The notes: generated from the sequence alone by a model not told the origin. Shown: positions 6,932-27,719, counted from the first letter of the stretch. The stretch is DNA of 32,000 nucleotides from Candidatus Heimdallarchaeota archaeon (GCA_030668875.1 DAOVER010000025.1:10895-42894), one strand, 5' to 3'. Made by a program: numbers and translations.

Positions 6932-6963
6932 ATGTGTTTTTGTCTTTTTGTCTTATTAGCTTG
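6932..6963 (+). repeat. 8-bp-periodic TTGTC motif array, putative left end of the tnpB remnant
   Basis: ATGTGTTT TTGTCTTT TTGTCTTA TTAGCTTG. Positions 6939-6959 match the reverse complement of 27313-27333 at 20/21 nt. Confidence 0.6.
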
Positions 6964-7027
6964 TAAAACTAGTAACATTTTCGAGATAGTACAGGTGTTT
7001 TTATAGTGAACTCTAGGTCAACGAAGG

Positions 7028-7300
7028 ATGGCAAAGGTACTGCGTGCAGAACGTATAGAAGTGACGTATCATCCAGCATTAAGCAGAATCTGTCATCAAG
7101 CAAAAAATCTCTATAATCGAGCAAATTTTCTGATAAAAACTTCTTTGAAACAAACAAACTTCTCTTTTACTACGATCTTGATAGACAATTGAAACAGGAG
7201 GGGTGCTACCGTGTCCTCCCGGCTCATGTTGCTCAACAGACACTCAAACTTCTTTCTAGATGTTGGAAGAGCTATTTTCGAGCTAAACAAGAGTGGAAGA
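7028..7300 (+). pseudogene. tnpB: Frameshifted, 3'-truncated tnpB fragment, same family as 26023-27282
   Basis: MAKVLRAERIEVTYHPALSRICHQAKNLYNRANFLIKTSL, frameshift near 7150, then KLLFYYDLDRQLKQEGCYRVLPAHVAQQTLKLLSRCWKSYFRAKQEWK. Aligns to the first ~90 aa of the intact TnpB; upstream TTTTATA...CTCTAGGT is also shared. Confidence 0.92.
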
Positions 7301-25862: not shown

Positions 25863-25920
25863 TGAATATATCACTTAACAGTCTACGATAGACTTAATGT
25901 ACAATACATTTATAATAAAA

Positions 25921-27333
25921 TTTTGTCATATTGTCATATAAACTACCATTATATCAGTTTAAATGGACAGTCTTGAGTAAATATTACGGGAGTTTTTATA
26001 AGAATCTCTAGGTAAAGAAGAGATGACTAAAGTTCCTAGGGTGGAATGTATAGAAGTTAACTATCATCCTGCTTTGAGCAAGATTTGCCATCAAGTAAAA
26101 AATCTCTATAATCGAGCGAATTTTCTGATAAAAACATCCTTGAACAAACAGAACAAACTACTCTTCTACAATGATCTCAACAAGCTACTCAACCATGAAG
26201 AATGTTACCGCGTTCTCCCTGCTCACACTGCCCAACATACGCTCAAGCTTATTTGTAGAAACTGGAAGGGTTACTTCCGAGCAATAAAGGAGTGGAAAGT
26301 CAACCCTGGAGATTTCTTTGCTATGCCCCGTCCTCCTAACTACAAAAAGAAGGATGGAGAAGTGGTAGCTATCTTCACTAACCAACAAGCAAGGATCGTC
26401 AATGGGTGGCTGGTTCTGCCAAAGAAGGTGGGATACACATACAAAACGCGGTTGACTTCTCACACGGATTTAAGAGAGGTGAGAATCATTCCAAGAAGAC
26501 CTGGGTATACACTTGAGTTAGTCTATCAGAAAACCTTACCTAAACTCCGTAAAAAGTTTATACGAAAAGGAGGAGTCGATTTAGGGATGATCAACCTTGC
26601 TACCTTTGTGGATAACCTCGGAGGACGACCGATTGTTATCAAAGATGTAGGGAAAGGAATAAAGTCTATAACCCAATATTATCTGAAAAAACAGAAACAA
26701 TTACAGATACAATACGCTCAACAGCAAAGACAAAAACTACAAGTAAAGAACCGATTGACCTATGGTCATACCTACTACAAACTCCGAGAAAAGTGGAGGA
26801 GGAAACTGAAAGACGCTATCCACAAGCTCACCTGTTATTTGGTTGACTTGTGGGTGGAACGAGGTCTCCATGAGGTCATCATCGGCTACAATGAGAAGTG
26901 GAAACAAGGGGTGCAATTCTGGAAGAAGATCACCCAGATGTTCGTCACCATTCCCTTTCTACGTATCATCAACATCTTGAAGTATAAAGGGGCAGAGAGG
27001 GGGATAAAGGTAGATCTGATTCCCGAAAAATACACTTCCAAGTGTAGTTTCCTTGACAATGAATTCCCAAAAGCTAGGAAAAACTACGCTGGTCGTCGAA
27101 TTACAAGAGGGTTATTTAGCTCCGCTCAAGGACATCCCATTAACGCAGATGTCAATGCTGCATACAACATTTTACTCAAAAGCGATCCGAAAGCCTTGCC
27201 TAAACGCAGGGTGAACGGGGTAGGAGGATACGTGATGTATCCACTCAGAGTGAGTATAGAGTGTCTTCGCTCTATATCATGACCTCTAAGCACAACATGT
27301 ACCTAGCTTTGTCTAATAAGACAAGAAGACAAA
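25921..27333 (+). mobile_element. Non-autonomous tnpB-only element, ends approximate
   Basis: tnpB without tnpA, visibly more G/C-rich than its flanks. TTGTCATA x2 on the left (25923-25938) and GACAA-N3-GACAA on the right (27320-27332). Confidence 0.6.
26023..27282 (+). CDS. tnpB: TnpB RNA-guided endonuclease, rearranged RuvC-II type
   Basis: RuvC-I GVDLG (D186), VIIGYN with Gly at the usual Glu position (G288), PEKYTSKCS (E335), RuvC-III NADVNAAYNI (D376). Zinc ribbon reduced to one Cys. Confidence 0.92.
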   Translation: MTKVPRVECIEVNYHPALSKICHQVKNLYNRANFLIKTSLNKQNKLLFYNDLNKLLNHEECYRVLPAHTAQHTLKLICRNWKGYFRAIKEWKVNPGDFFAMPRPPNYKKKDGEVVAIFTNQQARIVNGWLVLPKKVGYTYKTRLTSHTDLREVRIIPRRPGYTLELVYQKTLPKLRKKFIRKGGVDLGMINLATFVDNLGGRPIVIKDVGKGIKSITQYYLKKQKQLQIQYAQQQRQKLQVKNRLTYGHTYYKLREKWRRKLKDAIHKLTCYLVDLWVERGLHEVIIGYNEKWKQGVQFWKKITQMFVTIPFLRIINILKYKGAERGIKVDLIPEKYTSKCSFLDNEFPKARKNYAGRRITRGLFSSAQGHPINADVNAAYNILLKSDPKALPKRRVNGVGGYVMYPLRVSIECLRSIS

Positions 27334-27335
27334 TA
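27200..27335 (+). ncRNA. Putative omegaRNA/reRNA scaffold of the 26023 TnpB, boundaries approximate
   Basis: Consecutive hairpins across the ORF end and 3' flank: GGATAC/GTATCC (27226-27242), TATAGAG/CTCTATA (27255-27276), TTGTCT-aata-AGACAA (27309-27324). This is the usual location for TnpB guide RNAs. Confidence 0.5.
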
Positions 27336-27410
27336 AGCATCATTAATTGTTGTTATATTTCTTCTTCCATTGCTTCGAAATCTATTTATTAGCAGTTTGT
27401 TATATCCCTA

Positions 27411-27719
27411 ATGATGGAAAAAACACTTAATCTCTCAGATATTTTAGAAATATTGAGGAAAAACATGGTGACAATCCAATCATTTGGTATTAAAAGTATA
27501 GGTATTTTCGGTTCCTATGTAAAGGAACTACAAGAAGGTGCAAGTGATCTTGATGTATTGGTTGAATTTGAAATAGGAAAGAAAAATTTTGACAATTTCA
27601 TGGATTTACTTTTTTTCCTTGAAGATTTGCTTCAGGTTAAAGTTGATCTAGTTACTAAAGAAGCTCTTAGTCCTCACATAGGTCCCAATATTCTAAAAGA
27701 TGTTGTTTATATTGAATAA
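27411..27719 (+). CDS. Minimal nucleotidyltransferase (MNT, MntA-like antitoxin) with no adjacent HEPN gene
   Basis: GIFGSYVK...SDLDVLVEF (GS-x10-DxD), FDNFMDLLFFLEDLLQVKVDLVTKEAL. Confidence 0.88.
   Translation: MMEKTLNLSDILEILRKNMVTIQSFGIKSIGIFGSYVKELQEGASDLDVLVEFEIGKKNFDNFMDLLFFLEDLLQVKVDLVTKEALSPHIGPNILKDVVYIE

Follow-up and report, generated by a model that had tools for sequence, protein, structure and literature searches.

The window analysed here, a stretch of 32,000 nucleotides from Candidatus Heimdallarchaeota archaeon (GCA_030668875.1 DAOVER010000025.1:10895-42894), carries a 1430 bp element at 25914-27343 that consists of a left end, a tnpB gene for a protein of 419 residues and a putative omegaRNA scaffold overlapping the 3' end of the gene. 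The element is preceded by the target sequence TTAT (25910-25913), probably serving as transposon-associated motif (TAM), and followed, from 27344 on, by a flank that is predicted to encode the guide (Table 1). We consider it, at a probability of about 0.85, an intact, non-autonomous element derived from the IS607 family with tnpB and omegaRNA as its only cargo, and TnpB an RNA-guided RuvC nuclease with a rearranged active site.

Table 1. Positions of the element, its parts and a related fragment, counted from the first nucleotide of the window.
Feature	Position	Strand	Basis
TTAT, target site in the left flank, probable TAM	25910..25913	+	empty sites of copy L003 and 11 left-end flanks; TAM role presumptive
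Left end (LE), without transposase gene	25914..26022	+	conservation among copies begins here
Conserved TTTTTATAA box ~25 nt 5' of the ATG, likely archaeal TATA box	25993..26001	+	equal distance from the ATG in almost every family copy
tnpB, 419 aa; D186 (DLG), G288, E335, D376 (NADVN); zinc finger lost	26023..27282	+	
Putative omegaRNA (reRNA) scaffold	27184..27343	+	covariation, synonymous constraint, fold z
Terminal hairpin CTTTGTC-TAATAA-GACAAG, in omegaRNA and right end	27307..27325	+	covarying helix 6
CATCAT, right-end boundary (final six bases of the element)	27338..27343	+	invariant ATCAT in 25 copies; empty sites
Predicted guide segment, starting TAATTGTTGT	27344..27363	+	position predicted from characterised TnpB and IS607 systems
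Truncated second copy of the element family	6939..7298	+	blastn hit in the window with the element as query

Boundaries, insertion site and selection

The host metagenome-assembled genome (3.2 Mb, 99 contigs, 92% complete) holds 44 matches. About nine are intact over their full length, and many lie at contig ends. Ten own-genome copies, aligned together with their flanks, served to set the element ends. Conservation among the copies starts ~110 nt 5' of the ATG and stops 61 nt 3' of the stop codon at ATCAT, which is invariant in 25 copies and gives way to unrelated sequence beyond. At the left junction, eleven flanks of the genome read [T/C]TAT. The event itself is recorded at a paralogous copy, L003, both flanks of which are adjacent in three sister species, yielding three empty sites (..CAGTTAT/ATTTCAA..) to be compared with the occupied one (..CAGTTAT[AATAAA...CATCAT]ATTTCAA..). 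Thus, insertion took place after TTAT and without target duplication, only AT is common to the left flank and the right tip of the element, and copies were gained after speciation. At the window copy, the final AT of TTAT recurs as the final two bases of the element. No empty site was recovered for the window copy itself, relatives keeping the left-flank gene with synteny breaking thereafter, and a search for joined flanks within the own genome recovered two end pairs, neither of them informative.

The two ends mirror each other in short motifs: the left end has two direct TTGTCAT units (25923-25929 and 25931-25937), and the right end has GACAA units at 27320 and 27328 (span 27320-27332) that match the left-end TTGTC in inverted orientation. 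No open reading frame (ORF) is present in the 109 nt from the left end to the tnpB ATG. The TTTTTATAA box in this region stands at equal distance from the ATG in almost every family copy. It is probably an archaeal TATA box, which would make it part of the tnpB promoter; a left-end pattern scan of other genomes matched this TTTTTATAA box, not left-end junctions.

With a G+C content of 0.415, tnpB stands out from its surroundings (~0.33). The pairwise ratio of nonsynonymous to synonymous substitution rates (dN/dS) between own-genome copies, outside the overlap with the RNA, amounts to 0.05-0.08 at a dS of 0.56 to >2, that is, up to saturation, which indicates strong and long-standing purifying selection on TnpB.

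Family and fold of the protein

The translated protein scored 131.2 bits against the NCBIfam model NF040570 (guided_TnpB; cut-off 100, residues 18-385) and exceeded the cut-offs of both PF01385 (OrfB_IS605) and PF07282 (Cas12f1-like TNB) of Pfam, placing the family assignment far above chance. An AlphaFold2 model generated with 106 homologues as input reached a predicted local distance difference test score (pLDDT) of 92.8 and a predicted template modelling score (pTM) of 0.89, and displays the WED-REC-RuvC fold. Structural alignment using VIA-align returned Z-scores of 21.8 for AsCas12f, 20.8 for ISDra2 TnpB, 20.2 for the IS607 TnpB of ISFba1 and 17.9 for a mimivirus Fanzor2. Solved TnpB and Cas12f structures match the model end to end (residues 2-392, with ~340-355 residues for ISDra2 and AsCas12f), and Foldseek E-values against them go down to 5e-16. 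By sequence and by fold, the protein is a TnpB.

A relocated glutamate and a lost zinc finger

To position the catalytic residues, we exploited a library-wide search that returned 3875 representatives at E <=1e-3 and 590 at E <=1e-30. Conservation was scored in an alignment of 127 of these representatives with a mutual identity of <=50%, while residue counts for the Heimdall family derive from 25 family copies. The aspartate of RuvC-I, D186 (GGVDLGM), is present in 127/127 representatives and that of RuvC-III, D376 (INADVNAA), in 125/125. G288 (EVIIGYNE) is likewise found in 127/127, and the canonical RuvC-II glutamate is thus replaced by glycine throughout, with E335 (LIPEKYTSKC), 47 residues downstream, present in 125/127. 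All four residues are invariant in the 25 family copies. The first-pass annotation, drawn from the DNA alone, had singled out exactly these positions in proposing a compact nuclease of the rearranged type, and in this respect it was borne out.

The model places D186 at the close of strand 182-187 and G288 at that of strand 284-288 (beta4), the canonical position of the glutamate. E335 comes after strand 329-333, and D376 stands at the beginning of helix 375-387. The four residues would thereby occupy the positions expected in an RNase H fold, and the topology is consistent with that of rearranged TnpBs. We propose D186, E335 and D376 as the catalytic triad: D186 terminates beta1, E335 directly succeeds beta5 and would take over from the canonical glutamate lost at G288, and D376 is where the RuvC-III helix begins. 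The RuvC-I motif is DLG in 25/25 family copies, and a proline at its second position (DPG) occurs in 3/127 representatives.

The protein has cysteines only at positions 9, 22, 61, 78, 271, 341 and 414, and consequently no CxxC pair. Pairwise alignment with AsCas12f puts C341, six residues after E335, on the first zinc ligand, with L344, a gap and Q369 in place of the other three; E335 itself falls on the proline of the canonical DPxYTSQ motif. Among the representatives, 8/127 contain a CxxC anywhere, and a single one has the pair at the finger position. Even C341 is kept in 80/127 only and is serine in 8/25 of the Heimdall-family copies. Judging from these alignments, the whole clade has lost the zinc finger that lies between RuvC-II and RuvC-III, congruent with the earlier reading of a zinc ribbon gone save for one cysteine.

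An omegaRNA overlapping the 3' end of tnpB

Codon identity at positions with the same amino acid is ~0.5 among copies along most of the gene, and rises to 0.68-0.78 from codon 376 on. The scaffold delineated here overlaps the last 33 tnpB codons and extends to the right end; its 5' limit is uncertain, synonymous constraint being apparent from ~27148. When the final 195 nt of 25 copies were aligned, a consensus structure with 28 pairs in six helices emerged. In this structure 97% of the cells are paired, compared to 33-46% in controls with the partners shifted by one to three columns. Eight pairs show compensatory changes, and the covariation score is 0.172 (0.016-0.051 in the shifted controls), with 0/500 shuffles attaining the observed values. 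Folded as a single sequence, the 160 nt of the window copy reach z = -3.47 and form the same helices as the consensus. The terminal hairpin is helix 6, where 4/6 pairs have changed on both sides (variants GAC/GTC, TTGTG/CACAA and TAGTC/GACTA), and it is followed on its 3' side by a short single-stranded stretch that closes with CATCAT. Rfam contains no matching family, neither at the gathering threshold nor at E up to 1. Aggregated, the covariation argues that a structured omegaRNA overlaps the 3' end of tnpB and ends at the right end of the element, with its expression being predicted.

The right flank beyond CATCAT differs in every copy, as expected of a guide. By analogy, the segment directly following the element in the window would constitute the guide, with a predicted length of ~16-20 nt. 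In 27 right-end flanks of the own genome, the second base past the right end is A in ~17/27, against an A content of about one third; this bias suggests that the target preference reaches beyond TTAT, or that the first positions of the guide are constrained.

A separate, weaker rise in synonymous conservation among paralogues, 0.61-0.70 versus ~0.5, covers codons 181-225 around RuvC-I (window 26563-26697).

An IS607 background without a transposase

The absence of a target duplication and the identical AT dinucleotide at both junctions are traits of the IS607 family. Its serine-recombinase TnpA with a MerR helix-turn-helix (HTH) domain is however missing upstream of tnpB in the element, and a Y1 (HUH) TnpA (PF01797), as typical of IS200/IS605, was matched neither in the element nor in the genome (92% complete). 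Relatives within the clade that share 37-40% identity (four contigs of Thermoplasmatota, one of Lachnospiraceae) do have a TnpA of the serine type (MerR-HTH and resolvase), the gene for which overlaps tnpB at its start. This makes the clade IS607-associated and the Heimdall family a tnpB-only derivative of it. Own-genome copies could be aligned through their left ends without any tnpA, and two Heimdall upstream ORFs that were tested turned out to be unrelated genes.

Five serine-recombinase matches were recovered in the own genome, three of which are IS607-type TnpA genes. We rejected the elements of the latter as mobilisers, as their ends are unrelated and devoid of the TTGTCAT motif; the ends of the Thermoplasmatota relatives differ as well.

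Two further loci of the genome deserve mention. At G000:C18:25780-26562 (L015), a convergent gene for a serine recombinase of 238 aa lies just past the right end of element copy L009, a probably coincidental arrangement. At G000:C48:36397-38760 (L014), an IS607-type MerR-HTH serine TnpA of 196 aa is followed by a TnpB-like protein of 635 aa with an N-terminal extension of ~430 aa, the canonical RuvC-II glutamate (LKIEQL) and one CxxC. Its RuvC-III motif reads NTHTNAAHN, with histidine at the expected position of the catalytic aspartate, and by sequence it may represent a form that is rearranged at RuvC-III; a partial copy resembling this locus is located at G000:C87:1-1809 (L017).

Host range and phylogeny

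All nearest database proteins are named Heimdallarchaeota. Scanning genome contigs for TnpB loci with a 14-sequence alignment as query, we found that contigs at 55-92% identity are titled Heimdallarchaeota as well, except for one 'Thorarchaeota' bin, upholding the earlier call of a probable Asgard genome. Matches at 37-47% identity spread over Thermoplasmatota, other Asgard groups, methanogens and Altarchaeum, with a few in Bacillota, WOR-3 and Dehalococcoidia. In a maximum-likelihood tree of 59 proteins, limited to clade-internal sequences, the query falls into a Heimdall-only clade of 22 rows on a branch of length 0.55 (Shimodaira-Hasegawa-like approximate likelihood ratio test, SH-aLRT, 100). 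The Heimdall TnpB is therefore not a recent bacterial transfer, and the nesting among bacterial homologues that the first-pass annotation had named as grounds for abandoning its proposal was not observed.

A survey of the phylum (150 sampled genomes, threshold E <=1e-100) returned matches in 8/12 genomes of the Heimdall family to which the window belongs, and elsewhere in three genomes only, at 46-50% identity. This narrow distribution looks like an expansion at the level of one family, and not like inheritance across Asgard archaea.

Proposed mechanism and alternative readings

We propose that the 3' end of the tnpB transcript (~27184-27343) would fold as the omegaRNA scaffold and read through into the right flank, which would supply the guide. 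The ribonucleoprotein would then recognise TTAT together with a guide match, a combination present at the joint left by excision or at an unoccupied homologous site, and following cleavage there, repair from the occupied copy would restore the element. In this scheme, we infer the TAM role of TTAT, the guide length and the mobilising enzyme. RNA-guided, TAM-dependent cleavage of double-stranded DNA by the Heimdall TnpB is suggested by the residue conservation, the dN/dS of 0.05-0.08, the covarying omegaRNA and the empty sites.

Several points weigh against this interpretation. In the literature, we identified no biochemically tested TnpB of the rearranged type that is devoid of the zinc finger, and in the own genome no transposase fitting the TTGTCAT ends was found. 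The case for mobility of the element consists of copy number and empty sites, and the 5' end of the omegaRNA and the guide length are predictions from sequence.

An unlikely alternative is that the protein is a TnpB without nuclease activity or one that has been domesticated, perhaps as an RNA-guided regulator, or else a decaying relic, as might be suspected from the canonical glutamate and the zinc finger both being missing and from the observation that no transposase adjoins any copy. However, D186, E335 and D376 do not vary, and purifying selection is strong. Furthermore, the element is multicopy, its right flanks differ from copy to copy and its empty sites are clean, all of which speaks for mobility rather than for fixation at one locus. 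Moreover, a published enzyme with the same relocation of the glutamate is active (PMC10530073).

Considering the host, a relationship to the eukaryotic Fanzors also has to be weighed. It is very unlikely that the Heimdall TnpB lies on the Fanzor stem, or is its closest prokaryotic sister, with the rearranged site reaching eukaryotes by descent from an Asgard host. The arrangement with an alternative glutamate (Ealt) is common to the Heimdall TnpB and Fanzors (PMC10530073), the wider clade is IS607-associated as is Fanzor2, the host is a Heimdallarchaeote, and the TnpB fold is shared with Fanzor2 (ApmFz2, PDB 9B0L; Z 17.9 over 357 residues). Fanzors are however tied to cyanobacterial TnpBs with DPG, Ealt and a zinc finger (PMC10711439), and neither DPG at RuvC-I nor a CxxC...CxxC finger after Ealt is present in the Heimdall protein, which has DLG and is also without an N-terminal extension or nuclear localisation signal, in an archaeal host. 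Since the clade has lost a finger that Fanzors retain, it is derived and not ancestral. The restriction of the close family to one Heimdall family argues in the same direction, as does the structural comparison, where Fanzor2 ranks below ordinary TnpB and Cas12f proteins (20-22) and is less like the model than ISDra2 TnpB or AsCas12f; sequence searches of the PDB reached no Fanzor chains. There is a similarly slim chance that the finger-less Ealt clade is the archaeal sister of the Fanzor and pro-Fanzor lineage, in which case a non-collateral TnpB with relocated glutamate would have existed already in the Asgard ancestor of eukaryotes. The first-pass annotation had placed the protein in the lineage closest to eukaryotes and refrained from claiming the Fanzor stem; the Heimdall host stands, the hinted link to eukaryotes found no backing, and such caution was warranted, as nothing found places the Heimdall TnpB on that stem.

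Finally, a role of E291 (GYNE), three residues past the canonical position, as second catalytic acid with E335 being incidental, which the first-pass annotation had listed as an option and which a gapped HMMER alignment happens to favour by setting the clade position of E291 under the catalytic glutamate of AsCas12f, has a negligible probability, since position 291 is glutamate in 8/127 representatives (lysine being commonest) and in the 25 Heimdall copies most often proline (Pro 12, Glu 5, Lys 4, Ala 3), and the conserved alternative is E335.

Returning to the reading of a rearranged, RNA-guided nuclease within a transposase-less element, the data reveal a relocated-glutamate type of TnpB that is abundant, intact and strongly selected in Heimdallarchaeota, in a family that dispenses with the zinc finger entirely and for which even the last cysteine is optional. 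It forms a delimited, compact system, with a protein of 419 aa, a scaffold of ~160-195 nt, the TTAT site and a predicted guide position, possibly representing a non-collateral and zinc-independent nuclease. The element combines junctions of the IS607 kind with the lack of a transposase of its own, and has, as far as the evidence goes, no bearing on the origin of Fanzors.

Neighbouring features

The truncated copy elsewhere in the window shares 76% DNA identity with element positions 68-384 (blastn) and was detected in tblastn fragments too. It comprises a left end with TTTGTC repeats and ~90 tnpB codons before it stops at ~7298. Directly to the right of the element, a small ORF of 102 aa (window 27411-27719, +) resembles a minimal nucleotidyltransferase, possibly of a toxin-antitoxin type, as recognised by eye only.

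Comparison with known systems

Both the rearrangement of the glutamate and the loss of the finger have already been published (PMC10530073, PMC10711439, PMC10691335). Jiang et al. (2023) described a monophyletic 'TnpB2' group with the RuvC-II glutamate changed to glycine or proline and an alternative glutamate ~45 residues downstream; its member TvTnpB from Thermoplasma volcanium (E323) was shown to cleave DNA with an NTGAC TAM and to lack collateral activity, and the absence of collateral cleavage of single-stranded DNA has been reported for Fanzors as well (PMC10530073). Yoon et al. (2023) defined Ealt as a glutamate six residues before the zinc finger and divided the Ealt clade into a D-hydrophobic-G (DphiG) branch and a DPG branch, the latter holding Fanzors and cyanobacterial pro-Fanzors (PMC10711439). 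Altae-Tran et al. (2023) reported glutamate-to-glycine branches with a compensating glutamate after beta5 instead of beta4, archaeal rearranged branches, and zinc-finger loss in some large branches (PMC10691335); their RuvC-II-rearranged (RIIr) and serine-recombinase-associated branches are likewise among the nearest known counterparts of the Heimdall TnpB.

With Ealt, DLG, NADVN and no finger, the Heimdall TnpB belongs, on its sequence features, to this known TnpB2 or Ealt-DphiG type, in line with the initial assignment to the rearranged, compact form. The shared features include the glycine in place of the canonical RuvC-II glutamate, the alternative glutamate ~45-47 residues downstream in an ExYTS loop after beta5, D-hydrophobic-G at RuvC-I and NADxN at RuvC-III, a compact size of ~400 aa, an omegaRNA overlapping the 3' end and a mainly archaeal distribution. 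In its source record, a close relative from the databases carries the label IS607 family ISTvo1. On the other hand, the Heimdall protein is without three of the four cysteine ligands, the last one being serine in part of the copies, and its element is without a transposase and has TTAT as site and probable TAM, as opposed to NTGAC for TvTnpB. By analogy to this group, the Heimdall TnpB may be expected to be free of collateral cleavage.

Considering the element as a whole, Heimdall copies are seen without the tnpA of the IS607 family, while AT at both junctions, insertion without target duplication and short motifs inverted between the ends agree with that family. The TnpBs of ISDra2 (8H1J/8EXA) and ISFba1 (8IAZ) as well as AsCas12f (8J12) differ from the Heimdall TnpB in having the canonical glutamate after beta4 and a retained zinc finger, and ISDra2 TnpB in addition cleaves single-stranded DNA collaterally. 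With its canonical triad D194/E290/D371, ISFba1 TnpB can therefore not serve as a model of the Heimdall active site (PMC11061315). Nevertheless, these proteins have the fold in common with the Heimdall TnpB from end to end (Z 20-22), and share the same logic, with the TAM beside the left end and the guide taken from the flank of the right end.

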